Shown piece after piece: positions 11,401-64,000 of a stretch of DNA of 64,000 nucleotides. The notes under the pieces are model-generated. The model ran no database searches. It worked only from the letters and a program-made list of their open reading frames with translations, and was not told where the DNA came from. This DNA is from Acidisarcina polymorpha (GTDB lineage: Bacteria; Acidobacteriota; Terriglobia; Terriglobales; Acidobacteriaceae): positions 5,820,116-5,884,115 of the forward strand of contig NZ_CP030840.1 of NCBI RefSeq assembly GCF_003330725.1, written 5' to 3'. Numbering within the stretch: the stretch's first letter is position 1; the number at the start of each line of letters is the position of its first letter. Position numbers and translations under genes: made by a program.

Positions 11401-11422
11401 CGCAAGCATCAAAGGAGTCTCA

Positions 11423-17686: not shown

Positions 17687-17735
17687 AGGTTCACTCCGAA
17701 GCGACAACCTCCCGCCGCATCTGAAGCCGGCTTTC

Positions 17736-17771: not shown

Positions 17772-19277
17772 AACCAGCGGAACCCCGTGCTTCGGACGCA
17801 GACTGATCAACGGACTCATCGGCAGTTCTTCCGGCAGGCCTGGTGCCGGACGCACTCGCCAGTTGCGGAGAATCGTGGCGAGTACAAAGACCCCTTCCAT
17901 CCATGCCAGTCCTTCGCCGATGCATTGGCGGGAACCGGCCCCAAACGGGTAATAGGCGAACTTTGGCCGGACGGGCCGGCCCTCTGACGATCGGTTCTCC
18001 TCGGCAAAACGCCGCGGGTCGAACTTTTCCGGATTTGGCCAGAAACGCGGGTCGCGTTGCACAACTATCTGCGGAGCAATGAAGATCGCGCCAGCCGGCA
18101 TGGTGAACCCGCGAAAGTCGTAAGGCTCGGGGCCGCAGCTGCGTCCGATCACCCAGACTGGCGGGTAGAGGCGCATCGTCTCCGCGAACGCCATGTAGGT
18201 GTAGCGAAGCCGCGGGAAATCATCCGCGACTGGTGCGCGAGCACCGAGAACCCGGACCGCCTCTTGGTGCACCTCTTCCTGCGCTTCGGGATGTTTGGCG
18301 AGCATCCACAGGGCGAAACTCAGGCCGTTAGCGGTCGTCTCATGCCCCGCCAACATCACCGTGAGGCATTCGTCACGAACCTGCTTGTCAGTCATGTGCG
18401 CCGCTGGTTTTTGAGCCGCGGGGCTATCCTGGAGCGCTTCGGGGTTCTCCTCAACGTCGGTCGCCTCGAGCAGCATGGAGAGCAGGTCGCCGCGATCGCC
18501 CGGGGACTTGCGCCGCTCGGCGATCATGCCGTAGATGATGGCATCCAGATCGACGCCGCCCTTACGGATCTTCTCCATAGGCCCGAAGGGGAGCTTCTCG
18601 ATCTGCTTGGAGAAGGGCAGAAAGACAAGCGGCAGAAAGCCCATGAAGGCGTCAACTGCGGCAGCGATTTTCTTGACTTCGGCTTGTGCGTCGGTATCGA
18701 AGAGGCACTTGCCGACGATGCGTAGAGCAAGCAATAGCATCTCCGGATGGAGGTCGAGCGGACCGGGCTGCCAACGGTCGATCATCTCCGCAGAGTACTG
18801 CGAGATGACCTCGCCATAGGCGGCGATCCGCTGGCGGTGAAAGGCTGGAGCGGCCATGCGGCGCTGGCGCATATGCAGAGGTTCTTCGCTGGTCAGCAGG
18901 CCATCGCCAAGAATGAAGCGCGATCGCTGCATGACGATTCCCCGGCGGTTGCGCGGTTCGTCATTGACAAGTAATTCCTGGATCAACTCGGGATGATTAA
19001 ACTGAAAGATCTTGCGATTGCCGGCGCCGTAGTGCACCAGGTCGCCGTAACGCTTTGCGTTGTCCGTCAGAAAGTCGATGGTGCTCTGCCTAAACATCTT
19101 GCCGCTCAGCAACCGCGGCAGGAAAGGAGGGCCGGGCGGATTCCGCGATCCAGGTCTCGTGCGAATGTCGGGTTCAGTGTTCACTGGCTTTATAGTAAGC
19201 TGCGGCGAAGCGGGCGAATTGATGGGGTGAACGGGGCGGAATTCGTTCTCACCTCCGTGTGATCCAAGCTCGTTCAC
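17757..19277 (-). CDS. Cytochrome P450
   Basis: PPGPPFLP hinge, AGHETTAN I-helix, ETMRLYPP (ExxR), and heme loop FGAGSRQCIGEGLA. Confidence 0.85.
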   Translation of the reverse strand: MNELGSHGGENEFRPVHPINSPASPQLTIKPVNTEPDIRTRPGSRNPPGPPFLPRLLSGKMFRQSTIDFLTDNAKRYGDLVHYGAGNRKIFQFNHPELIQELLVNDEPRNRRGIVMQRSRFILGDGLLTSEEPLHMRQRRMAAPAFHRQRIAAYGEVISQYSAEMIDRWQPGPLDLHPEMLLLALRIVGKCLFDTDAQAEVKKIAAAVDAFMGFLPLVFLPFSKQIEKLPFGPMEKIRKGGVDLDAIIYGMIAERRKSPGDRGDLLSMLLEATDVEENPEALQDSPAAQKPAAHMTDKQVRDECLTVMLAGHETTANGLSFALWMLAKHPEAQEEVHQEAVRVLGARAPVADDFPRLRYTYMAFAETMRLYPPVWVIGRSCGPEPYDFRGFTMPAGAIFIAPQIVVQRDPRFWPNPEKFDPRRFAEENRSSEGRPVRPKFAYYPFGAGSRQCIGEGLAWMEGVFVLATILRNWRVRPAPGLPEELPMSPLISLRPKHGVPLVLERR

Positions 19278-19377
19278 TCATCTGCCTCGCAGAGCGCACG
19301 ATGATCGTGTGTATCGTCTGCAACTTCAACCCGCAACATCCTGCCGTAAATACTGTTCATAGGGATGAAGGGAGCCG

Positions 19378-21405
19378 ATGATGCGCTGGAGCCGAGTGTC
19401 TTCGTTGTCCTGGCTGCTGGCGGTGCTCCCGCTATCTTCCGGCGCCTCCGCGCAACTGACTGCGAAGAGACCGCAACATCACCTGCCCGCGGCCACTGTC
19501 GAAGCTCCATTGACGCAGCGCGAAAAGGCCGCGCAGTTGCTGAATCGATGCACATTCGGCCCTAGGCCCGGCGATATCACAGCTGTCATGAAGCTGGGGC
19601 CGGACGCCTGGTTTGAGCAACAGCTGAATCCCGAGACTGTGCCCGACGCGGTCCTGGAGAAGCGGCTGGAGGATTATCCGGCTTTAAAGCTGACACCCTC
19701 GCAAACCGCAATTGACTTTCCGAGGAACCAGGTCTTTCGCAAGATTTTGGAGGGAAAAGAGACTTACCCTCAGGATCCGGCCCTGGCGAGCGTCTACCAG
19801 GTGCTAGAGACAAAGTATGCGCACGAACAGCAGGTCCGCAAAGAAGAACAGGACAACCAGCAGACTCCCGAGCAGCAAGAGGCACAGAAGGCAGCCCAGA
19901 AGAAGCAGGACCAGGCCACCGCTCTGGTGGTTTCCGAGCAGATTCTCGGTATGCCTAAGGCGCAGCGCATGGCAGCGATCTTCAAGCTTCCGGTTGAGCA
20001 GCGGATCGTGCTCGCTGGCAGTACCCCCGATCCACAGAAAAAAATGCTGATCGCGGACTTCAATCCGCATGAGCGGGAGATCTTCGCGGCGATGGGCGGC
20101 GGTCCGGATGCTGCGCATGTCGTTCAGAGCGAGCTTCAACAAGCGAAGGCACTTCGCGCTATCTTGAGTGAACGCCAGCTGCAAGAGGTGATGACCGATT
20201 TCTGGTTCAACCACTTCAATGTATTTCTGAATAAGGACAGCGATGCGCTTTATACCCCCGCTTACGAACGAGACACCATTCGCCCGCATGCTTTAGGCAA
20301 GTTTCGGGACTTGCTGACGGCTACCGCAAAAGACCCTGCAATGCTCGTCTATCTGGATAACTGGTTGAGCATCGGCCCAGACTCAAAGGCGGCCGAGAAT
20401 CGCCAGGCCAACCAGAAGAACGCACAGAGAGGCCTCAACGAGAATTATGGCCGCGAACTCATGGAGTTGCATACCGTGGGAGTGAGTGGCGGCTACACCC
20501 AGGCCGACGTCACCAACCTGGCGAAGATCCTCACGGGATGGACGGTCGACCGGCCTGACCAAGGCGGCGGGTTTCTCTTTGAGCCGCGCAAACATGAGCC
20601 CGGAGACAAGCAATGGTTTCGGCAGAAGGTCGCCTTTCAGGCCGGACCGAACGGTGTGGCGGAGGGGGAGGCGGCGTTGAACTGGCTGGCATCCCAGTCG
20701 CAGACGGCCCACTTCATCAGCTTCAAATTAGCCCAGCGGTTCGTGGCCGATGAGCCGCCGCCGGCGCTGGTCGACCGGATGGCAAAATCCTTCCTCTCCT
20801 CTGACGGCGACATCCGGGAGGTGTTGAGAACTATGGAGCGTTCGCCCGAGTTCTTTGCGCGCAAGTATTACCGCGTCAAGGTGAAAACGCCACTCGAGTT
20901 TGTAGCCTCGGCCTTCCGCGCAACCGAGACCAACCCGGCAAATCCCGCCGCCGTCGTGAACGTGCTCAAGACGATGGGCGAGCCGCTTTATCAGATGCAG
21001 CCGCCGACAGGCTACCCGATGACCGCCGACCATTGGATGAACTCCGCAGCGCTGGTTGACCGGCTGAATCTCTCGCTCACCCTGACAGGCGGTAAGCTGG
21101 GAAACACACCTTTCGACGCCACGCATCTGCTTGCCACCGGATTGCTCGCCCGGGAGGTTGAGCCGGTGAAGTCTCCAGTCCGCCGCATTTCGGTAGAAGC
21201 GGGGGAGCCGGTCAGCGGACGCGAAGAAGCACTAGCCTTGCTCGAACAGATGGTCATCGGCGGCGCGGTTTCGGCCAAGACAAACGCTGTGATCCTGAAG
21301 CAAATCGCGGAGGACCAGGCCAGTCCGTCCCCGGCGGATTCGACGCAGGTGCTGAACACGATCGCTGCCCTGATTCTAGGCTCGCCGGAGTTTCAGCTGA
21401 AGTAG
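19378..21405 (+). CDS. DUF1800-domain secreted protein
   Basis: Signal peptide. QLLNRCTFGPRPGD...WFEQQL and FWFNHFNV are hallmark DUF1800 motifs. Confidence 0.8.
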   Translation: MMRWSRVSSLSWLLAVLPLSSGASAQLTAKRPQHHLPAATVEAPLTQREKAAQLLNRCTFGPRPGDITAVMKLGPDAWFEQQLNPETVPDAVLEKRLEDYPALKLTPSQTAIDFPRNQVFRKILEGKETYPQDPALASVYQVLETKYAHEQQVRKEEQDNQQTPEQQEAQKAAQKKQDQATALVVSEQILGMPKAQRMAAIFKLPVEQRIVLAGSTPDPQKKMLIADFNPHEREIFAAMGGGPDAAHVVQSELQQAKALRAILSERQLQEVMTDFWFNHFNVFLNKDSDALYTPAYERDTIRPHALGKFRDLLTATAKDPAMLVYLDNWLSIGPDSKAAENRQANQKNAQRGLNENYGRELMELHTVGVSGGYTQADVTNLAKILTGWTVDRPDQGGGFLFEPRKHEPGDKQWFRQKVAFQAGPNGVAEGEAALNWLASQSQTAHFISFKLAQRFVADEPPPALVDRMAKSFLSSDGDIREVLRTMERSPEFFARKYYRVKVKTPLEFVASAFRATETNPANPAAVVNVLKTMGEPLYQMQPPTGYPMTADHWMNSAALVDRLNLSLTLTGGKLGNTPFDATHLLATGLLAREVEPVKSPVRRISVEAGEPVSGREEALALLEQMVIGGAVSAKTNAVILKQIAEDQASPSPADSTQVLNTIAALILGSPEFQLK

Positions 21406-21466
21406 ATGGGCGGCAGGAAGCCTATGATACGCAGTTCGCCGATTCGGTTGACGACCGCAACCGCCA

Positions 21467-22225
21467 TTAATCCTCAATGACGCCTTGGAACATGGCTACG
21501 TCGGCTCCCGCCTCTTGGAGACCACGGGCGGCGACCAGAAGATAATATTCGAGGTTGGCGGTCGCCTCCCATGCCTTACGCGCTTTGTCGAGCAAGATCG
21601 CCTGGCTGGTGTGCTTGCGGAATGCTTCGTACTTCTTCTCTGCGTGGTTCCCAAGATGAAGTGTTAGAGAATAGGGCGTGCGGCTCGTGTTCGCCTTGGC
21701 CACCTCATCCTGAACCAACAAGAACGGAGTTGCCGAGTAATAGAGCTTCTGCGGCCAATAGGGCTGCATGCCGCGATCGATCTGTTCCGGAAAAGCGGAG
21801 GGCCGCCCCGCCCAGTGAAACGCGGTGGTGGCGGCGAGCGAGACTACGGTGTGATCGCGATGCAGATTGACGCCGCCTTCGCCACCGAATGTAAGGACGA
21901 CCTGCGGCCTCCACTGCCGAATACGCTCGACCAGCACACCGATCAGCTCCGTAGGATCATGCCTGGCCAGCTTCCCATCGGGATAATGGAGCACCTCGCC
22001 GCGGCTGACTCCGAGGATTTCACCGGCGGCGGCGAATTCGTCGCGGCGCATCTGCGCCAGTTCCTCTCCGCTTGAGGCGTCGCCGCGATTTGAGGCCGCC
22101 TGGCCCTCGGTGAGACAAATCACTGTCGTCTCGACACCGGCTGCATGGGCCAAGAGCAATGCTCCGCCAAAAGCGCCGCACTCATCATCCGGATGAGCGG
22201 TCATGCACATCAGTCGATAGGCCAA
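21467..22225 (-). CDS. PIG-L/LmbE-family N-acetylglucosaminyl deacetylase
   Basis: AHPDDE metal-binding motif, then HRDH. Length 252 aa. Confidence 0.75.
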   Translation of the reverse strand: MAYRLMCMTAHPDDECGAFGGALLLAHAAGVETTVICLTEGQAASNRGDASSGEELAQMRRDEFAAAGEILGVSRGEVLHYPDGKLARHDPTELIGVLVERIRQWRPQVVLTFGGEGGVNLHRDHTVVSLAATTAFHWAGRPSAFPEQIDRGMQPYWPQKLYYSATPFLLVQDEVAKANTSRTPYSLTLHLGNHAEKKYEAFRKHTSQAILLDKARKAWEATANLEYYLLVAARGLQEAGADVAMFQGVIED

Positions 22226-50595: not shown

Positions 50596-51419
50596 GGGCG
50601 ACCGCCGCGGCTGCCACTGCAAACGCGTTGAAAACCGCTCCGTAGCTCTGCCTGCAGCGGGACCTTGGTGGATAATTCCGCCTCTGGAAACCAGAGCGTA
50701 AAGTCCAAGCAGGCCGGGATGCGTCCGCCGCGATAATCCTGTCCCTCGACTCTGAGACAACCATGGGTCTGTTCCTCGATTTCCGATCTAGTCCGGAGCA
50801 ACTAGCTATTACGGAAACTCACAGCTCAAGGGCCAGCGAAGTCACACCACTTGCAAAAATGATTCGGTCCTCAGTGACTTTGCGTTCTCCGCGATGTCAG
50901 CCCCCGAAGTGGAGCCCAGATTTTACGCTCAGGCGGCGGAGAGTGGATATCAGCATATCTGTTGCTTGGCGCAACCAAAGGTTTGAATGGCGTCAGTCGC
51001 TCGCCAAAAAGCGCATTTCCGATTACCGCCTCGCGAGCCTACCCAAATACTTCGAAGCGCACCTTTCTGAACTTCTGGACCTCAACGCGATGTCGAAGAT
51101 GTGGGACGGTTTCGATCGAAGAGCTTGGTAATTTTCGCTGCGGTCGGCAGCATGTCGCCAAGGCTACCGCATCATCTTGAGCGCTTCCACCGACCGGGTC
51201 AACGCGGCAACGTCAGCATCCTCAAGCACGGTCCGATCGGTGCAACGTCGACTTGCTATAAGTAGCTGGATATTGTCCGAATCTTGCGATTACGTGGACG
51301 GGAGACAAGTTCGTGACAACTGATCAACAAGCTGTAGTTATGTTCGCTTTGCTGTTCTGTTTTGCTCTCAGTCTACCTAAAACCGATCACCGATTCCATA
51401 CACCCAATGGAGAGTCAAT

Positions 51420-52304
51420 ATGTTGAAGAGGTTCGCGAGAAGTACAGCCATCGTCGGAGCACTACTTGTCGCAGGTGCAGCAGCACAGGCGCAAAAGTAT
51501 TCGTTTAACTACTTTCGTGATCCGTCCCCCAATGCGCCTGTCATATCAGGAACAGATTTATCACCCACTGGAGAACTAGTGGGATGGTATACCACGACCA
51601 CAGCTGCCTGGGGATTTTCCGAGGTCGGTGGCAAGTACACTACAATCGCGCTGCCGCAGCAAGGCTCGGCTTCGCCATACACAGTAATAAACTCAATCAA
51701 TGGCCAAGGTAAGTTGGTCGGAGTCGGCAGACTGCCGGAAGGCTACGTCGATGGCTTTCTTTTGACGAGCTCCGGCGAGCTAACCACAATTGCGGTTCCA
51801 TTCCCCAATACACTGACAACTCCGCTAAGTATCAACTCTTCAGGGACTATCGTTGGAAATTACACGACGGAGAGTGGGGCACTAAACGGGTTCGTGCTTG
51901 AAGATGGGACCTATAAGGCCTACCAGGTCCCTGGCAGCTATAGCACAACAATTAATGACATCAATGATAACGGCGTCATTGTGGGCAGTTACACAACAAG
52001 CCGCGGCGGAACTTCCATAGGTTTCATGCTCAAGGATGGCACGCTTACTAAGCTGACCTTTCCAGGGGCAATTAACACTGTGCCCAACTCCATCAACGCC
52101 GACGGCCACATCGTGGGGCACTATGACACTAGCAATGCCGAACTTCCCTTCTATTTTGACGGCACTACGTACACTCAGATTGCCGTTCCTGGACAATATG
52201 CGTGCAATTTCACCCACATAAAGAACTCCGGCTACGTTGTAGGTACCTGTAGTAATAGCTCCACTTACGCAACAGAGGCCGTTGTTGGAACACCCACGTT
52301 GTAG
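51420..52304 (+). CDS. Secreted HAF-type extracellular repeat protein
   Basis: Signal peptide MLKRFARSTAIVGALLVAGAAAQA. About six copies of a ~43-aa repeat (IN-x-x-G-x-IVG-x-Y...G...GF-[LMV]-L-x-DGT-x-T), analogous to the TIGR02913 HAF repeat. It is the first gene of the lower-GC segment. Confidence 0.7.
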   Translation: MLKRFARSTAIVGALLVAGAAAQAQKYSFNYFRDPSPNAPVISGTDLSPTGELVGWYTTTTAAWGFSEVGGKYTTIALPQQGSASPYTVINSINGQGKLVGVGRLPEGYVDGFLLTSSGELTTIAVPFPNTLTTPLSINSSGTIVGNYTTESGALNGFVLEDGTYKAYQVPGSYSTTINDINDNGVIVGSYTTSRGGTSIGFMLKDGTLTKLTFPGAINTVPNSINADGHIVGHYDTSNAELPFYFDGTTYTQIAVPGQYACNFTHIKNSGYVVGTCSNSSTYATEAVVGTPTL

Positions 52305-52929
52305 CGCATCGATCGGAAGGAGTCGCTCTGCGAATAACTGGTAGTGGGTCATTGTGAATAAACAGGTGGTTGTGTGTCAACTTCCGTACCGAAATCATCC
52401 TGGATTAGTGGAGGATGCCATCCCTTCAGATGGCTTCCTCCCTGTCCTAGAGTACGGGCGCGCACTCAACACCTCAATCCGCTTCCGATCGCGTTCTCTC
52501 ATCGATGTCCAGCCCCTCCCTAAACCTGGCAAAGCAAACGAGCCAAACCACGGCTACTACTGGAAGCTAACTGACGTGTTAGCTTTGCAACGCCGACCAC
52601 GTTTCACACTTTGCAGCAACACCGCGTGTGGCGAATCGAAAGAACAGTCATCGGGGCAAAGCCATAGTCCGTCGCCTGATTGCAAGCAACGCTTTTGGTT
52701 GAAGCAATCGATCTGCTTCGAGCCATAATAGATGAGAATTGCCGCACCTGCTTCCCTCCGGAATTTATTTTGTCACCACGGTGGAATATCTGACCACAGA
52801 GAGCGTTGGTTGGTTGTAGCCCCTCCGGAGATCCGGGACTTGTTGCAACAAACGAATAAGTTGACAACTGTCGTACTTTCCAGACGCTCCAATCGTCTAC
52901 AGGAGGAGCTAACAATTGGAGATAATGCG

Positions 52930-54123
52930 TTGAACCTACATCGTTACCCAAGCACCACGCCTAGGTTCCACTCGCTCGATAGTCTTCGTGCGGGGATGAT
53001 GTTCCTCGGCATCGTATTACATGGAGTCCTGCCGTACACTGGAATTCGCATGTGGCCGGTGAACGACCCGACTACGCATCCTATATTTTGGGATGCCATC
53101 GTCTTTGCTATACATGTTTTTCGGATGCTTCTATTCTTTGTTTTGGCAGGTTTCTTCGCACACCTCCTCTACGAACGTCTAGGAGCGGCGGGTTTCCTTT
53201 ATCACCGCACCAAGAGGATCCTGCTGCCTTTTGCCATCGGATGGCTGGCGCTCTACCTGCCGACTATCATTGGCGTCCAGTATGGGATCCACGTGCGTGA
53301 TCCGCACCCCTGGGTAGAGGTATCGCATTATTTCAGCTCTGGGTTATTTCTGTCCCAGTCCTACACAATGCACCTGTGGTTTCTCTATTACTTGTACTGT
53401 TCTTACCTTCTCTGCCTCGCTATTTTGATTCTCACGCCGTCTCAGCTCAGAACCCGGCTGCAACAACCAATCACGATGAGCTTCCGGGCAGTAACAAATT
53501 CGCGATGGCGAGCATTCATTTTAGCCGTGCCTACCTGTGCACTTCTATATGTCTCGCCCATCGCATCTTTCGGAGCTCCCGAGGGCTGGTTGCCGACGAT
53601 CATAGATCTTGCCACCTATGGATATTTTTTCGCGTTCGGTTGGTACTTATTTGCCGAGATCGATTTATTATTACGGTTACAGCAGCATGCCGTAACTCAC
53701 CTAACGATCGCGTTCGTGTTGGGCCCGATAGCATTTAGATTGCACGGCTTGCTCCGGCACGAGCCTCGAGTTCACATTCCCCTGATCGCCATGACCGCGA
53801 TTATTTGTTGGTGCTTAATCATCGGGCTTATTGGTATAGGGAACCGCTATTGGAACGGCGGCAGCCCTCATGTGCGCTATTTCGCCGACGCCTCCTACTG
53901 GGTATATCTGGTCCACTACCCTCTCGTGATCTGGCTGCAGATAGCTTTGTTATTCTTCCATATGCCTGTGATACTAAAGTTTATTTTAGTCATCTCGGCC
54001 ACCACCGTGCTCAGCCTGGCAAGTTATCATCTCTTTGTGCGCTATACGCTCATAGGTAAGCTGTTGAATGGCACCCGACATCGCACCACTGGCGCGACGG
54101 TCGAATGTCCCACCGTAACTTAG
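52930..54123 (+). CDS. Acyltransferase-3 (AT3) family integral-membrane O-acyltransferase
   Basis: N-terminal LDSLRAGMMFLGIVLHG (the AT3 R/H motif) and ~10 TM helices. The start is taken at TTG 52930, with GGAG 8 nt upstream. Confidence 0.7.
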   Translation: MNLHRYPSTTPRFHSLDSLRAGMMFLGIVLHGVLPYTGIRMWPVNDPTTHPIFWDAIVFAIHVFRMLLFFVLAGFFAHLLYERLGAAGFLYHRTKRILLPFAIGWLALYLPTIIGVQYGIHVRDPHPWVEVSHYFSSGLFLSQSYTMHLWFLYYLYCSYLLCLAILILTPSQLRTRLQQPITMSFRAVTNSRWRAFILAVPTCALLYVSPIASFGAPEGWLPTIIDLATYGYFFAFGWYLFAEIDLLLRLQQHAVTHLTIAFVLGPIAFRLHGLLRHEPRVHIPLIAMTAIICWCLIIGLIGIGNRYWNGGSPHVRYFADASYWVYLVHYPLVIWLQIALLFFHMPVILKFILVISATTVLSLASYHLFVRYTLIGKLLNGTRHRTTGATVECPTVT

Positions 54124-54287
54124 CTACATAGACACGAGACTTGGCTGCGTCGCCTTCCAGACGTGCTCGCGACAAAGCTGGAAGCCGACGCAGCATAGAC
54201 ACCTGGCGCGCTGAGCCAGGTTTAGAGATGTGCTGAGGCGCGATACATCTCATTCACCGATCGTCTTTTGGTGAATACTCGTGCCTG

Positions 54288-55547
54288 CTAACGCTGCATT
54301 ACATCATGTAGATGTCTCGCTGCGCGTTGAGCTCCATTCTGCCATGCAATCTTCTCTTGCATTCTTCGAGCCGCATTCCTATAAGATGGATCGCCCAACA
54401 CTTCCTCTATCATTGCGGCAAGTACATCTCGATCAGGTGTCTGAGTATTTAGAAATCTGCCCACTCCGAAGTGGGCGACTCTTGCCGCCACCCCCGGCTG
54501 ATCAAAGCCAATAGGAAGGACAACGAGAGGCACCCCGTGGTAGAGGGATTCCAGTACTGTGTTCAGGCCCCCGTGGGTGATACATAGATCAGCTAGTTTG
54601 AGGAGATCTATTTGCGGTGCATACGATACGGTGATCGTGTTTTCCGCCAGCTCTCCGAGATCATCCGGCTGAAGATATGGTCCCGTAGAAACGACTACTT
54701 GCCTGCCCTTTGCTTGAGCAGCTTGTACCACGAGCCGTAGCCGTTCCGCTGAACCATTCAGCATAGTTCCCATCGTTACGTAAATGAATGGATCGCCCGT
54801 GAGCCTTTCCCAAGGGAATTCAGTCGTGGTACTGACCTCAGGTGGGCTGATGAGCCCCGCATGGAATAGTTGCTCGGGCCAAAGCGGGCTGGCGAAATCG
54901 AATTCTTTAGGTACTTGAGTAATCCATGCCTGTTTCGAAAGAAACGGATAGGCCGTGGAGAGATCGGGCGTTATGCCCCTTTCGCTAAGGTATTTAAGAG
55001 CTGCAGCTCGACCAGGGCCGGCAAGTTGCAGGAGCGACCGAACACCTGCTTTGTTCCTTGCAATCGCTTCCATGCTAGCGTCCGGTCCCCAATCGAAGTA
55101 ACAAGGGGGGGTTCCTCCACTGTAGTCTTCATGAACCTGAGCAGAGAGGTGGGCAAATGGAATACCTAGATTCATCGCAACCATTTCAAATCCTCGGGCA
55201 CAGGAGTCGAGAATTAGCGCGTCGGCCCTGCTTACTCGAACAGCTCTTTCCCCGTCCTTGAGAACCCCAATGCCTACATCACACGCGACGGACGCTGCCT
55301 CACGAACGACATCTAAACCAAACATCGTGCGGATAGGGTGATAGCGTCGCTCGACTTCGCCGTGTGGAAAGTCCTGGATACACGCCGATACAAACTCGAT
55401 TCCGGCCGCGCGAAACCATGGTTCCTGGTCTTCTAAACCGATTGCGCATACTGTATGACCAAGCGAGTCGAGCTCCCTGGCGAGTCCAGACATCACTCTC
55501 ATATGACTTGATGCGGGTACTGTATAGACGGCGAATCTCATTGTCAA
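54288..55547 (-). CDS. GT1-family UDP-glycosyltransferase (CrtX/MGT-like), paralog 1
   Basis: CITHGGLNTVLESLYHGVPLVVLPIGFDQPGVAARV matches the C-terminal donor-binding block of the zeaxanthin-glucosyltransferase/MGT subfamily. Confidence 0.8.
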   Translation of the reverse strand: MTMRFAVYTVPASSHMRVMSGLARELDSLGHTVCAIGLEDQEPWFRAAGIEFVSACIQDFPHGEVERRYHPIRTMFGLDVVREAASVACDVGIGVLKDGERAVRVSRADALILDSCARGFEMVAMNLGIPFAHLSAQVHEDYSGGTPPCYFDWGPDASMEAIARNKAGVRSLLQLAGPGRAAALKYLSERGITPDLSTAYPFLSKQAWITQVPKEFDFASPLWPEQLFHAGLISPPEVSTTTEFPWERLTGDPFIYVTMGTMLNGSAERLRLVVQAAQAKGRQVVVSTGPYLQPDDLGELAENTITVSYAPQIDLLKLADLCITHGGLNTVLESLYHGVPLVVLPIGFDQPGVAARVAHFGVGRFLNTQTPDRDVLAAMIEEVLGDPSYRNAARRMQEKIAWQNGAQRAARHLHDVMQR

Positions 55548-55590
55548 TAATCCTTGATGCTGCTACTAGAAGTGGAGTGGCGAACGTCGG

Positions 55591-56211
55591 TCACGACAGG
55601 TTAGCCGATGATTCACTCTGATGGTGTTCAGGGCCGAGCGATAATGGCGCGCGGTATAAGCTAAGGTCTATAAAGTAGGAGTGATACTTGCCCTGCTCCA
55701 TGGAAAACTGAGCCGCTGGATGCGTATCAACTCCCCGTGCGGCAGTTATCGACGGAACGTTATTGGCAGCAATAAAGCTGATTGCAAACGCAAACTCACG
55801 AGAGGCAGCGCGACACGCGACTGCATGCAGTCTCTGAAAGACATTCTTGCCGCGTGCCTTGCCCGAGAGGCACACTGGTCCAAATAGACACGTCTCCAGG
55901 CCGGGATCTACGATACCGTTATCTTCGAAGCTTCTATGGAGGGAGGAGAGTAACGCGTTGATGATAGAGTTGCCCATCCAATGACGCGTGCGAGAGACGC
56001 AAAAATAGCCCAGCAAGTCGGTATCTTCACAGGCGATCACGATCCCCAGATCGTTTGCGTAAGTGTCTATGTCTTGGAGCGTCATCTCGACGGAGAGGAA
56101 TCCTTTTCGCCGCTCTGATTCGGATAGATTGTTTATATAGCGGGTTCGCTGCAAAGCGATGATGGAGCTGTAATCTTTGGGAGTAGCGAATCGGAGTGAA
56201 AGTCTAGTCAT
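55591..56211 (-). CDS. Putative GNAT-fold acyl-CoA N-acyltransferase
   Basis: CLSGKARGKNVFQRL resembles GNAT motif A. Sits between two GT1 paralogs. The match is weak. Confidence 0.45.
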   Translation of the reverse strand: MTRLSLRFATPKDYSSIIALQRTRYINNLSESERRKGFLSVEMTLQDIDTYANDLGIVIACEDTDLLGYFCVSRTRHWMGNSIINALLSSLHRSFEDNGIVDPGLETCLFGPVCLSGKARGKNVFQRLHAVACRAASREFAFAISFIAANNVPSITAARGVDTHPAAQFSMEQGKYHSYFIDLSLYRAPLSLGPEHHQSESSANLS

Positions 56212-56238
56212 TGTTCAGATTCCTTTTGAATCGGTGCA

Positions 56239-57525
56239 CTATTTAATCGGGTTTGCTATACCTGTGCTTATCGAAGCGAATGCCCGATCGATAATTCTTC
56301 CGGCATGCGCGAGACTCTGTTTCCGATCCAAGGCGGTCTGCATTAGGATCGCATTCATGCGGTATTTCGGGTTGTTTAGCACTTCGTCGACTAGCCGCGA
56401 AAGAACCGGTAACGTTATTTCCTCGGCACGGCAGAAGACGCCCACTTCTGCGTGTGCAACCCGCGCGGCGACTCCTGGCTGATCGTTCGTGATCGGAAGG
56501 ACAACAAGTGGCACTCCGTACTGCAGAGCTTCCAAGACTGTATTTACTCCTCCATGAGTAATACAAAGTCTTGCTCGTTGAAGAAGTTCCAGTTGAGGGG
56601 CAGACTTTACCAAGATCAAATTACCGGGTACGTCTTCAGACTTATCCTGCTGCGCTGATCCGCCCGTTGTCAGAACTATCTGACATGTCTTCGCTCGTGC
56701 GAGCTGCACAATCATTTGGTAAAGAGGCAGAAGGCCATTTTGCAACGTGCCGAAGGACACATAAATGAGCGGCTCCCCCGTCAGAAGATGCCATGGAAAA
56801 TCCGCGTGGTCAGTTGCCGATGGCTCGCAGAGTGGGCCGACATGGATGAGCTGCTCTGGCCAATAGGGATTCGGAAAATCTAACTCCGATGGTAACTGGG
56901 TGAGCCAAGCAAGCCTCGATGTTAGAGCGTGAGGGTCATTCCAGTTCACCGTGACGCCAGCATCGGTGAGGAAGTGCTTGATCATCGCCTGCATTGGAGC
57001 GGCTTTCTGAGCAAAGCGATATAGTCCCGAGCGATTCCGCTCAATAGCCTCCTTTGTTGTGTCTGGTGGCCAATCATAGCTCCAAAAAGGTGTATAGCCA
57101 GAGTAGTCACTGTGAAGTGCGTTCGAGACCTGCACGTAAGGAATACCCATCGATAGGGCTACAGCTTCCATTCCTTTGGCCGAGAAATCGATTACTAGCG
57201 CTTGAGCACGACTCTGGCGAAGAACTCTGGGGCCATCTCGGAGCACAGCTTTGCACAAGTCACTTAGCAGATCAATACTGAACTCGGTACCAGCCTGGCC
57301 TGACATGGAGCGAAGGGGGGCAAAGATAGAGGCAATCGACCCCGGAGGATATTCTTCTTCACACATGGGGAAGAAGAGCATGCCTTCTTCTTGTGTAACT
57401 CTAGCCTGGAGATCACAAAGACCAAGGACAATAACCTCATGACCGAGAAGGTGCATCTGCCGCGCGACAGAAAGCAGTACGGACACATGGCTGTAGAGCG
57501 GCAGCATATAGAACGCGATTCTCAT
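56239..57525 (-). CDS. GT1-family UDP-glycosyltransferase (CrtX/MGT-like), paralog 2
   Basis: CITHGGVNTVLEALQYGVPLVVLPITNDQPGVAARV. Collinear similarity to the 54288..55547 product throughout (DYSG..TP, WPEQL, etc.). Confidence 0.8.
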   Translation of the reverse strand: MRIAFYMLPLYSHVSVLLSVARQMHLLGHEVIVLGLCDLQARVTQEEGMLFFPMCEEEYPPGSIASIFAPLRSMSGQAGTEFSIDLLSDLCKAVLRDGPRVLRQSRAQALVIDFSAKGMEAVALSMGIPYVQVSNALHSDYSGYTPFWSYDWPPDTTKEAIERNRSGLYRFAQKAAPMQAMIKHFLTDAGVTVNWNDPHALTSRLAWLTQLPSELDFPNPYWPEQLIHVGPLCEPSATDHADFPWHLLTGEPLIYVSFGTLQNGLLPLYQMIVQLARAKTCQIVLTTGGSAQQDKSEDVPGNLILVKSAPQLELLQRARLCITHGGVNTVLEALQYGVPLVVLPITNDQPGVAARVAHAEVGVFCRAEEITLPVLSRLVDEVLNNPKYRMNAILMQTALDRKQSLAHAGRIIDRAFASISTGIANPIK

Positions 57526-57639
57526 AGTTCTTCTCGAAACTGCTCGTGCGCGTTGGGCCGTTTTAGACGGGGTGGTATTTTCCTGGTCCTTGAATCGATA
57601 GTTAGTTTGCTCAAGGCGTATCTAACTCTTGCCAGAAGG

Positions 57640-58887
57640 TTAGCCATCTATGCGAACGGGAAGCGATTTGAGTGACCGCATCCAATAGGCGGGCTGATAA
57701 TCGAATGTCGTTGTGTTCAACTCAATGTTAGGGAACCGCTGTAAAAGAGATGCCAACGATATCTGTATTTCAAGCTTTGCCAGGGAAGCGCCGATGCAAT
57801 AATGTGGTCCATATCCGAATGCTAAAGAGGAAGGGTTCTCCCTTCTCAGGTGGAGCGTCTCCGGTGAGGAATACTGTTCTGGGTCGTGGTTTGCGGCGCC
57901 TAAGCCGAGTTGCACACGGGTTCCACTTTTCAATACAATTCCATCGATGTCATGGTCGCCTGAGAGCAACCTGGTAACCCATAGAACGGGGCTAACGAAG
58001 CGCAGGAGTTCGTTGACGGCATTTCCCAGCAACTCCGGCGTGTCTAGCAACTCGACCCACAGAGAGCGCTGTTGAAGCAAGTGCCGCATGGCTCCCGAAA
58101 GCAGGTTCGTTGTAGTTTCATGTCCGGCAAACAGCAGGAAGCTAACCTGCACCATGATTTCGTCGGGCGACATCCTCGCTTCGGGGTCAGGCTCATTGAC
58201 CAAACGCGAAATGAGGTCTTTCGAAGGGCTCTTCCTGCGCAGCGCAATGATGCTCTTGAGTACAAGCTCTGCCGCGCGAACCCGCTCTGCGATGTTCTCG
58301 ATCATCTGCTGGTCTCCATGTAGAACCGCCCCAGGAAATCGCGTGAGCCACATGGACATCTGCCGAATAGTGTCATGAGACTCCTCAGGGATGCCTAGTA
58401 TGTCAAATATGACCCCGGAGGGAAGCGGATGAGCGAAGCTGCGCACAAAGTCGATTTCGCCTTCCTCCTCGATGGCGTCCAGCAATTGCACCACTCGGTT
58501 TTCGATAGCCTTGCGCATGTCTGCTATGACGTCAGCTGTGAAGGCCTTCGTTATGGCGATGCGTTGGGTAGTATGCTGCGGAGGATCTGTCGCGAGGATT
58601 GTGGTAAACCAAAATTTGTAGCAGACGTTGAATGCGTTCGCAGTAGTGGCGGGAAGAGCTTCGGCGCGTCTCAATATCTCCGGACCGGTACCGGACCTGA
58701 AGAGTGCCGGTAATTGCAGCGCGGCTTTAACATCTTTATATCGGGACAGCATCCAGAACTGGTTTTCGGCCCGCCAATATACCGGATGGTGTTTCCGAAG
58801 ACGGGTGAAGTACGGATATGGCTCCTGGATGTTTGACAGAGAAAACGGATCGAGATTGACTGAGAGCTGTTGTTGGTTTGTGTCCAT
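57640..58887 (-). CDS. Cytochrome P450
   Basis: I-helix FAGHETTTN, ELLRF (ExxR), and heme loop FGYGPHYCIGASLA. The start is taken at MDTNQQQ. Confidence 0.85.
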   Translation of the reverse strand: MDTNQQQLSVNLDPFSLSNIQEPYPYFTRLRKHHPVYWRAENQFWMLSRYKDVKAALQLPALFRSGTGPEILRRAEALPATTANAFNVCYKFWFTTILATDPPQHTTQRIAITKAFTADVIADMRKAIENRVVQLLDAIEEEGEIDFVRSFAHPLPSGVIFDILGIPEESHDTIRQMSMWLTRFPGAVLHGDQQMIENIAERVRAAELVLKSIIALRRKSPSKDLISRLVNEPDPEARMSPDEIMVQVSFLLFAGHETTTNLLSGAMRHLLQQRSLWVELLDTPELLGNAVNELLRFVSPVLWVTRLLSGDHDIDGIVLKSGTRVQLGLGAANHDPEQYSSPETLHLRRENPSSLAFGYGPHYCIGASLAKLEIQISLASLLQRFPNIELNTTTFDYQPAYWMRSLKSLPVRIDG

Positions 58888-59182
58888 CCTTGAACTCCTA
58901 ACTGTCTTTACATAAACCTGGCGTACCGAACGCCACCATCGCCGCGCGACACGGTACATTTGCAAAATGCATCCCGCCTCCCCGAGGGCCTATCTCGCGA
59001 GCTCTGGTCAGTCAGCGGGCGCGGTCACAGAGGTTCTTAGGCGTATACACCAATTTAAGGTCACATCATTTATCGAGGCAGCTTCGCCCTTACTCAGGCA
59101 ACTAGGCCGGACGTGTGCAACGTTGTGGCAATTAGGACTTGAACCGATTGTCTCGGCGTCGCCGGATAGACAGGCGTTCGAA

Positions 59183-60367
59183 TCAGAGTGGCGTTCTCAA
59201 ATCGGCGCAAGATGCAAGCTGAGCTGAGATGCGCTCCGCGACTTCTCTCGATATGGGAGAGCGCACGTAAAAGTCTTCTGCGGTAGACTGCAGTCTGTCA
59301 ATTCCCAGATTCCTGATGCGCCAATCTTGGTAGAAACCGTGTGCGACGCAGAGTTCCGGTACGTCTGTCACTCCCTCATCGGACAGGACGCGAGCCAGAA
59401 AAAACGTATGATAGCCGAGCCGGTGAACCCGCTCGACCTGTAGCTCGCGCACTCTGCACGCAAACAGAGGCACCGGAATTTTGAAGATTTGGGACGGACG
59501 CGTGGGAAAGGGAAGCTCCTTCCAATCGATGGTAGGCCGGTTATGATTGGAGCCTAAGAAATATGCGATAGGGCCTTGCTTCATGGGAACACTGCTGAGC
59601 GCGACACGCCTGGTTTGTTGGACGAACCTTTCGGGCAAATAATTGTGCTTGAGGCAGAAGCCGAAGTAACTGCGGTTGAGTTCACCCATCACGTTCAGGG
59701 GAAAAATATTCCCGTTGCCCTCCTCATCCGCGACGCTGAGGAGAGAGACGGGGCGCGGGCAGCAAAACAGGGCCGACATGGCGTTCATCTGCCCAGCGGG
59801 AACTCGGATCTTGTTTGCCCTGCGGGAGGTAACAAGTGTATACCACAGGCGATTGCTCCAAAGCCTTACCGTGGGAAGACAGTAATTGACACACCTGCTG
59901 GAACGAAAGAGTAGAAACTCCGACCCACCGCATTCCAGCCTATCCTGATAATCAAGGTCGACCTCACTGAGGACACGATGGGCACCGCCGTTTTCGCACA
60001 AACGCAGCTTAAGTAGCTGGCAGTGGCTTTCATCGGGTGCCTGGCCCTGCGCGAATTCGATGCAGATGGTAAACGGCAATCCGGACGCCTGGCAGTGGCG
60101 CGTGGTAACGTCGATGGGCCTACCTACCCCGAGGAGCCACACCACGACTTCCTGCTGTGATGCCGTTTGCGCTAGAAAGAACCGGTTCGGCAGTTGCTCT
60201 CCGCCAAGTACTGCTTTTTTCATCCGTTTCAGCAGGTGCTTCTTTAGTGACATAGACGTTTCCGTCGGGTGCACGATGAGGCTTTGCCTAAGACAACTGA
60301 TTATGTCCATGACTATCTCGGCGATCTTTGATGATGCCCCGCTCTTATCTCGGAGGTGATCACCCAC
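59183..60367 (-). CDS. Flavin-reductase-like (FMN-binding split-barrel) domain protein with an unassigned ~190-aa N-terminal extension
   Basis: The C-terminal ~200 aa are PVSLLSVADEEGNGNIFPLN...LFACRVRELQVERVHRLGYHTFFLARVL, resembling the flavin reductase pattern (VTT..dG.pNgMT...; a.leC.v...gdH.ifigeV). The start is uncertain; the internal Met at 59788 is an alternative. Confidence 0.45.
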   Translation of the reverse strand: MGDHLRDKSGASSKIAEIVMDIISCLRQSLIVHPTETSMSLKKHLLKRMKKAVLGGEQLPNRFFLAQTASQQEVVVWLLGVGRPIDVTTRHCQASGLPFTICIEFAQGQAPDESHCQLLKLRLCENGGAHRVLSEVDLDYQDRLECGGSEFLLFRSSRCVNYCLPTVRLWSNRLWYTLVTSRRANKIRVPAGQMNAMSALFCCPRPVSLLSVADEEGNGNIFPLNVMGELNRSYFGFCLKHNYLPERFVQQTRRVALSSVPMKQGPIAYFLGSNHNRPTIDWKELPFPTRPSQIFKIPVPLFACRVRELQVERVHRLGYHTFFLARVLSDEGVTDVPELCVAHGFYQDWRIRNLGIDRLQSTAEDFYVRSPISREVAERISAQLASCADLRTPL

Positions 60368-61141
60368 ACGCCACGTCTAGTAGCGATGGATTACAGACAA
60401 GGACGGTTTAGGCGCTCGATTGTGGGCCGCTCGGCCTCCAGATAGACTTGCACTCACTCTTGATATAACGCCTTCACGCGCACGCTGACCATCTCATCGT
60501 TGGCATTTGCGGACGTCACGCCTGTTGTCGCCGACTATTCCATTTAGTGCCGAGCGTCGCTGCGCCTCCGACCAGAAGGCCGCTCTTCATAAAAGAGCGG
60601 CGGCGATCAAGTGAACGCTTGATGTTGTCCCGTGAGTTTCGCATTCTTGCCTGCCTTTCTATCTAGTGAAACTAGACACAGGCATTTTTATTCTATCCAT
60701 CTCGAGTTATTCCAAGAAATTCGCCTCGAGCCGATGACCTACCTCGCACACGATCGTTCACCGCTAAGTAGCGGGCACCTTATTAGATCCGGAGACATGG
60801 TTGGCTGATGTTCCATCCGGCGGCGCAATATTCCTGCAGCGAAAGCTATAAGCTCGCCCTAGGACTTGCCTGGTAGGTGTAGCAAGGCGATCGATAGGAA
60901 GAGGCTGATAACCAGGTAACCAGCCGAACACTCTTGCCCCGACCTCCGAAGAACTGGCACAACTGAAAGAGACAGATCGACCGACGAGAAGACAAGTCGG
61001 ATTTTAAAACGTGAAGAAGCCCCGCCGATCGGAGCAGTAGAAGGCATAGAACCGTCGATCGGCTCTGTTGTTAGAGTTCTCGGCGAACCTATGCGCAGAC
61101 GATTTCCAGCTTCTTCAGCTTTAACGCTTGATCGAAAAGCG

Positions 61142-61933
61142 CTATGCAGGATCAATGGATTCGAGGACCGGATAGCCGAGAACATAGCTCACTGGAAGAA
61201 ACCCACTTCGGTCCTCTCCCATGTGCCATTGATAGCCGCTACGCTTCAACGGTTGCAACATGTTCTCAACTTCTTTCGTGGAGTAGACACGGAAACATGA
61301 AATTACCCCGTCGTACCACAGTACAAACGGGACAACCGGGATAAGGTAGGTCCAGAGCAATCGTGACCAGGAAAAAGGTCGTATGGTCGGAGCCAGCAAC
61401 CATGTAAGCGCAGGGATGCAACAGACGGCGAGCAGGGTTCGCGGGGAGCGGCGGGCAACTTCGAACACTGCAATCCCTCGCCGTTGTTTCATGGCGTTTT
61501 CAAGTATCATTTTGGCCTGACCACTACCAAAATGATGAAACGAGGAAAAGATTGTTTGGAAGCCTTCCAGATCCGCTGGAATCATCGTGGCATCTGTTGA
61601 ACGGTCCTCAAAAGATAGCAGGGTCGAGACCGCACTGGCCCGCTGGAAAGCTCGCAAATTTGGATACTTGTCGGTCAATCTGACTGATATTGCGGAAACC
61701 TTCTTCACTGCAGGCTCCCGGGCTAACCGCAACCATGGACCGCCCCCACCCGAGCAAAGATCCAGTACCTTAGAAGTTCCGGCGCGATTAATGCTTCCAA
61801 GTAATCGGCCGAGAATCGGCTTATAGAAGTTCCCAAAGTTCCACAGCGACTGTAACCCGTCGGTCACCAAGTCTCTCAGAAAGTTGGGACATGCCGGATG
61901 ATCGTGAATTTCTCGCAGATCTAAGCGTTGCAT
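61142..61933 (-). CDS. Class I SAM-dependent methyltransferase
   Basis: KVLDLCSGGGGP (motif I). The C-terminal region is hydrophobic. Confidence 0.7.
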   Translation of the reverse strand: MQRLDLREIHDHPACPNFLRDLVTDGLQSLWNFGNFYKPILGRLLGSINRAGTSKVLDLCSGGGGPWLRLAREPAVKKVSAISVRLTDKYPNLRAFQRASAVSTLLSFEDRSTDATMIPADLEGFQTIFSSFHHFGSGQAKMILENAMKQRRGIAVFEVARRSPRTLLAVCCIPALTWLLAPTIRPFSWSRLLWTYLIPVVPFVLWYDGVISCFRVYSTKEVENMLQPLKRSGYQWHMGEDRSGFLPVSYVLGYPVLESIDPA

Positions 61934-61979
61934 AGATTCAGTAATTTACCTTCCAGGAGGAAATATCGTGGACTTGAAC

Positions 61980-63206
61980 TTAGGAAATACCTCGGCGGTC
62001 ATGAACAGAGTGCAGAAAAGGAGTCGCTGGAAGTGAAAAGGGTTGACGGCGTTTTTTGGGAATGAGGAGGGATTGCATCACATCTTCGCTGGCATAGAGG
62101 CGCATCTCTCTTTCGTACTTCGATATAGCCTGTGTCAGGTTGCCCCGCCCTTTCGCTACGGTTAAGAGCGATCTACATAAAAGCTGGGCGTCTCGCAGGG
62201 CGGCATTGGCTCCTATACCGAAGACCGGCGTCGTGTTGCGCACCGCATTGCCGATCAGGGTGACGACGCTCGAGTCCCACAGGGGAGGTTCAGGCATAGC
62301 CTTTAAAGGAACGAGGAAAACACTTTCAAGTTCGCTATTGGACATTGTCACCCAAAGGCGGCCGTGCAAGTGCTGCGAGCGCTCCAATGCTAAATCGAGC
62401 AACTGCCTTGAGGAATACACTTCCACGTCCGGTGGAAGAGTGCCATCAGCCACCGTATAAGCCCAAACAACAAACGGCGCGACTTCAACTTCGATGGAGG
62501 GAACTTTGATGTCGACAGGTGCCCTCGACAATGCTAGGAACATCGAGCCAGTTGCGCGGGAGACCACGGTATTGGGCGACCCATCAAGCATAATGCCCGG
62601 TAAGGAGTCAGCCCAGCCAAGGTGGGTTCTTCCGACGATTAAGGATACTTTCGTGCTGACTTTCTCGACACCGGGTAGCAACTGCTTCCGCACGAGTGAA
62701 TCACTTCCGTCAGCCCCCACCAGGACATCGGTTGTCTCTTGCGTGCCATCTTGGAAAGATACCCCTACTTTCCCGTCGGCTCGCACTTCGTAGCGATCGA
62801 AGACTTTCCCCCAACTCACGATGTCCGCGGGGACGCCCACGTGGGAAAGGCCCTGCAACAATATCCTGTGCAGTTCTACCCGGCTGATCGACATGAGGCT
62901 TTCGTCGATCAATTTCCCGTCTATCAGGTGTGACCCTCTGACGTCCGCCAGAATCCGCAGCTTCTCATCGAAGAACCGGTTTTGTCCACCAACCCGAACG
63001 CTCTTCTGAAGGAATGTCCTCCAGTTGGCCTTTGGAAGACATTCATACAATGCCTGTTGACCAAAGGGGTTGATGTGAATTCCATATCCTGGAAGCTCAA
63101 GTAAATCCCTAGCATTGCGCTCAAAAACCTTTACCTCAATCCCGCTTCGCAACAGACCGTGCGCGAGACAAGATCCGCCGACGCCGGCTCCAATGATAAT
63201 GACCTT
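61980..63206 (-). CDS. FAD-dependent aromatic-ring monooxygenase (group A flavoprotein hydroxylase)
   Basis: MKVIIIGAGVGGSCLAHGL (GxGxxG), DVLVGADGSDSLVR (the GADG motif), and C-terminal GDAAH-like VTLIGNAV. Confidence 0.85.
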   Translation of the reverse strand, partial: KVIIIGAGVGGSCLAHGLLRSGIEVKVFERNARDLLELPGYGIHINPFGQQALYECLPKANWRTFLQKSVRVGGQNRFFDEKLRILADVRGSHLIDGKLIDESLMSISRVELHRILLQGLSHVGVPADIVSWGKVFDRYEVRADGKVGVSFQDGTQETTDVLVGADGSDSLVRKQLLPGVEKVSTKVSLIVGRTHLGWADSLPGIMLDGSPNTVVSRATGSMFLALSRAPVDIKVPSIEVEVAPFVVWAYTVADGTLPPDVEVYSSRQLLDLALERSQHLHGRLWVTMSNSELESVFLVPLKAMPEPPLWDSSVVTLIGNAVRNTTPVFGIGANAALRDAQLLCRSLLTVAKGRGNLTQAISKYEREMRLYASEDVMQSLLIPKKRRQPFSLPATPFLHSVHDRRGIS

Positions 63207-64000
63207 CATGATGCTTCCTTCCACAAGGCGGATCTTAGTGAGCCTGTTCTACTTCGGTCTGTCGCAATGCCTGGGCCGCGTCGGGCCGAGATATCGTCTT
63301 AGCGGATAACACGCGGTGCATAGTTGTTAAGAGGCGGTGTGTAGCAAGATACGGTATCAGCCTGGCCCGAAACAAAGGATCTTTACCGACCCATCGGCGA
63401 TATTAAGGATTGCGCTCGCTCTTCGCCGTTCAAGAGCCTGCGAATGCTTCAAGTCGGATGCCATGCACGCGTGCCCCGTCCCTCTCCGGAGGGCCGGTAG
63501 GACGTAAGTACTCAACTCATGGTCTTAATGCCGTTTACTCGGAGTATTGCCTGTCTGTCGACGGTTGATCCCGCAATGGATTGTCGTTGATCTCTAGTCC
63601 GCCCTTCTTTTACAAACCTCCTTCCTACGTTGGCTGACCAGGCAGACGATCGCGATTATGCCGTAACTCCCGGGTAGCAAGTGAGCAATCGAACCGAGGG
63701 CCATCCAGCTTCTTGTGAACCATAAAACGCCTTTGCTAAAAAGCCAGAGCGTCGCTCTCAGATGCGTTGAGCCGGAACGCGGGCCGGGACGCAACAGATA
63801 ACAGGTATGTACCAACCTGGCGAGAGCGGCTTGGTTGCCGTCTTACGCGTCGCGGATCAAGGCACAATGCTGAATAGACTTCTCACTCTAAAACTGCCAT
63901 TCTTCAAGGCGCTCAGGCTTCCTGTTGTGGGCTTCGACTTAAACGGCGACGTTCGGTTCGCCGCGAACCGCCACTCACTTAAGGTAGGTTCTGCACGCTG

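Follow-up and report, generated by a model that had tools for sequence, protein, structure and literature searches.

GT1-type glycosyltransferases, which have the GT-B fold, take part in several described systems. In Pantoea, CrtX is encoded inside the carotenoid cluster crtE-X-Y-I-B-Z. In Bacillus, the gene of the cytochrome P450 YjiB adjoins that of YjiC, a UDP-glycosyltransferase (UGT) of the kind represented by MGT, OleD and OleI, and the tailoring of glycopeptides made by non-ribosomal peptide synthetases (NRPSs) involves the Gtf enzymes. The eukaryotic sophorolipid cluster of Starmerella bombicola combines a P450 (CYP52M1), two GT1-type enzymes (UGTA1 and UGTB1), an acetyltransferase (AT) and an ABC exporter (MDR) (PMC4384140). 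Here we analysed a 64-kb stretch, referred to as the window, of the 7.11-Mb chromosome of the soil acidobacterium Acidisarcina polymorpha SBC82 (Acidobacteriota), in which an operon of four genes, encoding a P450, two GT1 enzymes (GT1a and GT1b) and a predicted N-acyltransferase of the GNAT type, lies in DNA of low GC content. With belief and doubt in about equal parts, we read the operon as a module for tailoring a small metabolite of non-ribosomal origin, of the (lipo)amino-acid or peptide type, placed in a mosaic region whose other genes have a separate history.

The operon is on the minus strand and runs from 58887 to 54288. The P450 gene (57640–58887; AXC14766, 415 aa) comes first and is followed by GT1b (56239–57525; AXC14765 / WP_114209475, 100% match), the GNAT gene (55591–56211; WP_114209474, 206 aa) and GT1a (54288–55541; AXC14764), with gaps of 114, 27 and 43 nt between them. 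Upstream of the P450 gene the flanking genes are at least 295 nt away, and downstream a gene for an AT3 membrane acyltransferase, convergent with the operon, ends 164 nt from GT1a.

It was found that the same four genes, in the same order, are present on two metagenome contigs, L001 (61–71% identity) and L002 (65–75%), and with the window the module is seen at three loci. GT1a is 61% identical to its orthologue on L001 and 71% to that on L002, GT1b 68% and 72%, and the P450 71% and 75%. All four open reading frames (ORFs) of A. polymorpha are full-length relative to these orthologues. The ratio of non-synonymous to synonymous substitution rates (dN/dS) is 0.08–0.18 across the four genes (GT1a, 0.09; GT1b, 0.08; P450, 0.10) and thus indicates purifying selection on all of them, although the ratio is an average over the whole divergence, in which a recent loss of function would not show. 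The operon is rare and is the only conserved part of the low-GC stretch.

After GT1a, the contig L002 carries the start of an IS6-family transposase and L001 a stop-interrupted remnant of an IS5-family transposase, both recognized by tblastn against annotated plasmids. Pfam gave no name to these short insertion sequence (IS) fragments, and a third peptide received no name in the tblastn search against annotated plasmids either. Close members of the GNAT number only three among 5.8 billion proteins. Because of these few members, the IS fragments on L001 and L002 and the compositional shift described below, the four-gene cassette looks like a mobile accessory unit.

The two glycosyltransferases are 41% identical to each other. 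GT1a has UDPGT, EryCIII-like_C and Glyco_tran_28_C domains and GT1b likewise has GT1 domains (PF00201, E 5e-22 and 1e-19; PF06722, E 3e-18 and 1e-14), which places both of them in the GT1 family of GT-B fold. In the alignment, catalytic His13, Asp ~112 and the THGG…DQPG columns are all kept in both proteins. Their best curated model is TIGR01426 (MGT), which gave 137 bits for GT1a and 127 bits for GT1b against a cut-off of 260. The best NCBIfam models, those of the macrolide- and rifamycin-inactivating enzymes MGT, OleI and Rgt, were all matched far below their curated cut-offs. The nearest solved structures are those of the YjiC-type UGTs of Bacillus, CalG2 and OleI, with GtfA and GtfD among the PDB matches, and these alignments cover chiefly the C-terminal domain. 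A single deviation was noticed in the GT1a orthologue of L001 (6753–8009), which reads VTQGG in the nucleotide-sugar motif, where all the others have (I/V)THGG.

In a neighbour-joining (NJ) tree, drawn without support values, the GT1a clade (three loci) is sister to the GT1b clade (three loci and the protein AXC10745), and both are nested in a large, mostly acidobacterial family whose members are 39–47% identical to them. Since each of the two sister clades holds all three loci, the tree indicates that the duplication is older than the split of the loci and that the pair has been retained. AXC10745 (P0004) is a third A. polymorpha paralogue, of the GT1b type, encoded outside the window at a distance of ~4000 genes. 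Its identity to GT1b of L001 is 79%, but to GT1b of the window only 63%; this may mean that the genome contains, or once contained, another copy of the module with a different origin.

The source annotation names both GT1s 'zeaxanthin glucosyl transferase', and an earlier note on this DNA, made from the sequence alone, had also found them closest to CrtX / MGT-family glycosyltransferases. Part of this likeness is real. CrtX of Pantoea stewartii is similar in length, has the N-terminal catalytic His, aligns over its full length (E about 1e-31) and shares the C-terminal motif that the note had quoted (ITHGG.NT…P…FDQPGVA.R). However, it is only 24–26% identical by alignment and 28% by tblastn, and in the NJ tree it branches as an outgroup to the whole clade. 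Carotenoid genes (crtE/B/I/Y/Z) were found neither among the 39 ORFs of the window that were scanned nor on L001 or L002, whereas CrtX sits inside crtEXYIBZ. Orthology with CrtX was rejected on these grounds, and the carotenoid identity that the note had suggested falls with it. As CrtX is so distant and outside the clade, and the match to the MGT model is below its cut-off, the name is an automated label and not proof of CrtX function.

The neighbourhoods of the relatives give another picture. On L001 a single-module NRPS, C–A(–T) in the order of its condensation (C), adenylation (A) and thiolation (T) domains, is divergent from the P450 gene of the module and 265 nt away from it. The three nearest outgroup GT1s examined all (3/3) adjoin NRPS or condensation genes. 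The first, P0007 on contig L045 (44–47% identical), is accompanied by an A-T-C NRPS, aminodeoxychorismate/anthranilate-synthase-like genes and a PapA-type condensation enzyme; P0008 on L046 (~46%) by PapA_C/Condensation fragments and a chorismate mutase; and P0012 (42%) by a C-A-T NRPS, a condensation protein and a thioesterase. More distant members do not show this association: NRPS/condensation genes are absent around P0099 of Terriglobus saanensis and around P0022 (40–43%), and GT1s on Nostoc and Granulicella plasmids (31–33%) belong to lipid/exporter-type clusters. Judged by these contexts, the GT1 lineage nearest the module is repeatedly tied to NRPS-type condensation chemistry. Because relatives in this lineage adjoin NRPS/condensation enzymes and the cassette appears mobile, a non-ribosomal-type substrate is favoured over the lipid or carotenoid scaffold that had been proposed before.

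Compared with the tailoring of NRPS glycopeptides, the module has in common the EryCIII-like_C/Gtf-type GT1s, the P450 beside an NRPS on L001, and the NRPS/condensation genes beside the sister GT1s. It differs in that the NRPS partners of its kin are single-module or short rather than multi-module glycopeptide synthetases, the window ORFs scanned contain no NRPS, and a GNAT is an unusual partner. Two further observations were made on these contigs. The L001 A domain has the Stachelhaus-type code DMEVAGAVNK when read against GrsA, at most a hint of a basic amino acid, and this was not used as evidence. On L045 the region 1–8910 holds the A-T-C NRPS, a GATase, a chorismate-binding enzyme, an Aminotran_4 protein, the PapA-type condensation enzyme and the GT1; from this gene content, the product of the cluster looks like a glycosylated aminobenzoate-derived compound.

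The first enzyme of the operon is clearly a P450, with a score of 103.5 bits for PF00067 (E 1.5e-29) against a gathering score of 22.8. Its heme motif FGYGPHYCIG is intact, and ExxR is present in the translation as ELLRF. Among solved structures it is closest to CYP107/109/125, PksS, BioI and YjiB, together with CYP142 and CYP267B1. We also considered a DesVIII-type activator of the glycosyltransferases, which was rejected since the heme Cys is kept and the model score is low. TIGR04516 and TIGR04515, the models for activator-dependent glycosyltransferases with a P450-derived activator (DesVII/DesVIII type), were matched at 59–64 bits (cut-off 440) and 104 bits (cut-off 343).

The GNAT gene has no hidden Markov model match of its own in Pfam/NCBIfam and was recognized by remote homology and a structure model. 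An exhaustive profile search starting from it yielded 351 remote relatives, and 43 of the 76 sampled matched PF00583. When only the three close sequences were used, the AlphaFold2 model reached a pLDDT of 39 and was not usable, and a PDB profile search with the three-member alignment returned noise only; with the 76-sequence alignment the pLDDT was 92.5. The model shows a GNAT fold that includes the pyrophosphate-binding (R/Q-x-x-G-x-G/A-like) β4–α3 segment, and the proteins closest to it in structure acetylate the amino groups of peptides and amino acids. On the strength of remote homology and this confident model, the gene between the two GT1s encodes a divergent GNAT. The original GenBank annotation missed it, as is seen from the AXC numbers, which pass from GT1a (AXC14764) straight to GT1b (AXC14765); a RefSeq entry exists, but no GenBank AXC accession. 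Besides GT1b, eight proteins of the low-GC region match A. polymorpha accessions within AXC14762–14771 exactly.

Outside the module, the proteins most similar to the GNAT (34–38% identity) are encoded on eight soil metagenome contigs, L005–L012 (for example L005, 5640–16533). There the GNAT gene is always directly downstream of an adenylate-forming, AMP-binding enzyme and is followed by OEP, HlyD and AcrB genes of an RND efflux system, without any GT1 or P450; on L005, LuxR-type regulators lie upstream. Between these loci the GNATs are 65–68% identical, whereas their neighbours are 81–93% identical, the AMP-ligase 87–93%. The eight loci form one lineage, were counted as a single observation and were not used as evidence.

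In the mechanism we propose, the P450 would hydroxylate a hydrophobic amino-acid- or lipid-derived aglycone and GT1b would move a hexose from UDP-hexose onto the new hydroxyl; the conserved D-Q in the GT1 sugar motif suggests this donor. GT1a would add a second sugar or glycosylate a second site, and the GNAT would N-acylate the substrate at a free amine. The gene for the scaffold would be beyond 64 kb or elsewhere in the genome, or may have been lost.

Several points weigh against a non-ribosomal-type substrate in A. polymorpha. An NRPS stands next to the module itself on one contig only, L001. No NRPS or other core gene, be it of a polyketide synthase (PKS), terpene or crt family, was found among the 39 window ORFs scanned, the longest of which is 825 aa, in agreement with the earlier note, which had seen no scaffold synthase. 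In a protein database that includes A. polymorpha, the L001 NRPS had no close orthologue from this organism, the best match anywhere being 43% identical, and the cassette may be orphaned in A. polymorpha or may act on something else. The GT1 relatives of 31–33% identity in the lipid/exporter-type plasmid clusters keep a lipid aglycone among the candidates. In addition, promoter and terminator signals at the operon occurred in numbers at or below shuffle expectation, and it is from the chemistry of the families that the reaction order, the sugar donor and the acceptor have been deduced.

The composition of the DNA around the operon was also examined. In 1-kb windows the GC content is 0.55–0.59 at 40–50.5 kb and 0.505–0.549 in the remainder of the window, which starts at 51 kb, falling from ~0.58 to ~0.52 past the LolA gene, which ends at 50595; the genome average is 56.8% (PMC6252331). 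The GC content at third codon positions (GC3) is 0.669±0.032 in 32 upstream ORFs and 0.49–0.63 in the nine ORFs of the low-GC island (z −1.1 to −5.8, and below −2 in eight of the nine). Similarly, tetranucleotide usage in 4-kb windows correlates with that of the host part at 0.57–0.83 in the island and 0.85±0.05 in the host windows, with L1 distances of 0.21–0.30 and 0.17±0.02, respectively, and the departure is largest at 52–58 kb. By all three measures the stretch has the atypical composition of a genomic island, and on this basis horizontal acquisition is plausible, as the earlier note had held. Its compositional break at ~51.2 kb was likewise borne out, the usage not being uniform across the boundary, although the stated fall from 60% to 50% GC is too large and the actual drop is ~5–6 points.

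The left border follows the core genes for an RlmN-like radical SAM protein, an M16 peptidase, a pilin-like protein and LolA. It consists of a gene-poor stretch of 824 nt (50596–51419, GC 0.541), the very length given before, with a lone ORF (50763–51131, 122 aa) that has no Pfam match; no tRNA and no Rfam family was found in it. The low composition runs to the end of the window, so the right border is outside the 64 kb. Hallmarks of mobility at a border were absent, as the region 50.6–64 kb contains no tRNA and no integrase, IS or other mobility gene, and direct or inverted repeats around the low-GC region were found at chance level only.

Rather than a single biosynthetic cassette, the low-GC region is a collection of accessory genes of mosaic make-up. 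It is read as a patchwork because only P450–GT1b–GNAT–GT1a recurs elsewhere while the neighbours do not: neither L001 nor L002 has homologues of the AT3, flavin-reductase-like, methyltransferase-like or FAD-monooxygenase genes, and the methyltransferase-like gene has no homologue on L003 either. These four genes are neighbours of separate origin. The one coherent cassette that had been inferred earlier is thus reduced to four genes, while the abundance of enzymes that modify small molecules was confirmed by Pfam/NCBIfam. The calls of AT3, two GT1s, GNAT, P450 and FAD monooxygenase held, and those of a flavin reductase and a methyltransferase are below the family thresholds.

On the plus strand, a HAF-repeat / DUF3466-like secreted protein (51420–52304; AXC14762, ACPOL_5514; TIGR02913, E 3e-9; PF11949, E 8e-7) has a GC3 of 0.55 and is in the low-GC region, unlinked to the operon. 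It is followed by the AT3 gene (52732–54123, plus strand; AXC14763; PF01757, E 7e-26), whose product scores 91.5 bits for PF01757 against a gathering score of 31, while its best NCBIfam model, OpgC/MdoC, gives 153 bits against a cut-off of 338. Membership of AT3 in the module was rejected, as it has no counterpart on L001 or L002 and IS fragments follow GT1a there; the pairing of glycosyltransferase and AT3 in the earlier note is lost for the same reason. An imperfect inverted repeat of 26 nt (52510–52535 and 54210–54235, 81% complementary) brackets the AT3 gene and by a rough seed count is probably due to chance.

On the other side of the operon, a weakly flavin-reductase-like hypothetical protein (59183–60310, minus strand; AXC14767, ACPOL_5519) is encoded in a separate transcription unit, 295 nt from the P450 start. 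It matches PF01613 below threshold (24.9 bits against a gathering score of 27, E 2.5e-5) over residues 202–335 only, and the PDB match to a flavoredoxin is weak (E 0.06). Beyond it is a gap of 774 nt (60368–61141) without family or Rfam match. The gap holds a 42-aa ORF (60516–60644, minus strand) that resembles an orphan twin-arginine (Tat) signal peptide (DRRRSFMKSGLLVGGAATLG) but is not followed by a mature domain, which suggests a deleted or rearranged gene.

The last two genes of the region form a two-gene unit on the minus strand. The first in coordinate order (61142–61933) is tentatively methyltransferase-like, with a hydrophobic C-terminal half, a motif-I-like VLDLCSGGGG and matches below the cut-offs (Methyltransf_25, E 0.021; PRK06202, E 8.5e-6); no PDB relative of it was found. 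The second is a group-A FAD monooxygenase (61980–63209; AXC14771; PF01494, E 5e-14), whose NCBIfam matches, including the tetracycline destructase/Tet(X) models, are far below the cut-offs. The sole relative of it that was retrieved, 55% identical, belongs to a metagenome-assembled genome of Bryobacteraceae and stands in a TetR–DUF4440–DUF3159 context with no glycosyltransferase. Upstream of the FAD-monooxygenase gene, six-frame translation showed a non-coding stretch of 631 nt (63225–63855). From 63856 a minus-strand ORF leaves the window, and its 47-aa fragment has no Pfam match.

Two other places in the window deserve mention. At 8000–14000 there is a second odd stretch, with a GC content of 0.55, a tetranucleotide correlation of 0.69–0.74 and few long ORFs; a truncated N-terminal fragment of a serine recombinase/resolvase in it (10221–10550, minus strand; PF00239, E 4e-10) is probably an old mobile-element scar. 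A second, unrelated P450 and GT1 neighbourhood was seen at 15116–22225 in DNA of normal GC content, with genes for a radical SAM protein (15116–16267, minus strand), a DUF1800 protein and a PIG-L deacetylase. Its GT1 (16388–17686, plus strand) has a Glyco_transf_28 N-terminal domain and is ~21% identical to GT1a/b, and its P450 (17757–19277, minus strand; 506 aa) gives a full-length Pfam match (E 7e-79).

Of the other explanations, the one that survives best, although we consider it unlikely, is a self-contained glycolipid pathway of sophorolipid-like logic that needs neither PKS nor NRPS. The substrate that the P450 hydroxylates would be a fatty acid, or else an N-acyl amino acid produced by the GNAT itself; the GT1s would build a disaccharide and an acyltransferase would decorate it. 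This would account for an enzyme set equal to CYP52M1, UGTA1, UGTB1 and acetyltransferase of S. bombicola, for the lack of a core synthase in the window and of the L001 NRPS orthologue in A. polymorpha, and for the GT1 relatives in lipid/exporter clusters. The P450 structures nearest to ours include the fatty-acid and steroid-side-chain hydroxylases BioI, CYP109/YjiB, CYP125/142 and CYP267B1, but such likeness is generic to the family. The resemblance to the sophorolipid cluster that is meant here is one of enzyme logic; moreover, the operon has no exporter, the structural neighbours of the GNAT N-acetylate amino groups while the sophorolipid acetyltransferase is an O-acetyltransferase of another family, and the closest GT1 relatives adjoin NRPS/condensation genes, not lipid genes. 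A bolder form would make the four genes a self-sufficient, IS-mobilised pathway for a new bacterial class of glycolipid or glyco-lipoamino-acid surfactants, the prokaryotic counterpart of the sophorolipids. Its scaffold would be an N-acyl amino acid, made or capped by the orphan GNAT; the P450 would add a hydroxyl to it, and the anciently paired GT1s would build the disaccharide. We hold this to be improbable.

There is a similarly small chance that the genes are a 'phase I / phase II' cassette for the modification of xenobiotics or antibiotics, in which the P450 hydroxylates, the GT1s glycosylate and the GNAT acetylates, with the FAD monooxygenase as a further inactivator. Such a role would suit a unit that is mobile and accessory, a P450 resembling YjiB, and GT1s whose best models are MGT, OleI and Rgt and whose nearest structures are the promiscuous YjiC-type UGTs of Bacillus. 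The weak match of the FAD monooxygenase to tetracycline destructase/Tet(X), and the TetR regulator beside its 55% relative, point the same way. All these model matches are far below the curated cut-offs, however, and, unlike the MGT/YjiC enzymes and the yjiB–yjiC pair, the operon joins two distinct, anciently paired GT1s and an orphan GNAT in a fixed order, which fits a defined product better. The NRPS adjacency on L001 and at the sister GT1s also favours biosynthesis, as in the tailoring module we prefer.

Slightly less credible still is a decaying remnant, that is, a cassette from a larger cluster since broken up and with no present role in A. polymorpha. The long non-coding gaps of 824, 774 and 631 nt, the orphan Tat-signal-like ORF, the IS remnants beside the module on L001 and L002 and the failure to find a close orthologue of the L001 NRPS would agree with it, whereas the four ORFs are full-length with intact catalytic motifs, and their dN/dS values are low, if with room for a recent loss. 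Finally, the idea that CrtX-like GT1s and AT3 form a cassette for glycoside esters of carotenoids or lipids, in a thermozeaxanthin or CruC/CruD-like logic, can practically be set aside: the annotated names, the CrtX alignment and motif, the AT3 gene 164 nt from GT1a and the unpigmented to light pink colour of the strain (PMC6252331) are outweighed by the distance to CrtX, by the lack of crt or terpene genes in the window ORFs scanned and on L001/L002, by an AT3 that is not conserved with the module, and by a T. saanensis member of the family without crt context, the source names being automated.

Hundreds of acidobacterial GT1s bear the database name 'zeaxanthin glucosyl transferase' with no support from orthology or context, which matters wherever carotenoid glycosylation is inferred from annotations. 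Apart from that, the region is an ordinary accessory patch of tailoring enzymes, of a familiar kind, with an orphan GNAT. Acidobacteria are abundant in soil and chemically almost unexplored. The four-gene cassette is compact, intact and apparently mobile, is small enough for heterologous expression, and could bring to light a glycosylated metabolite and a GNAT subfamily that are both new.

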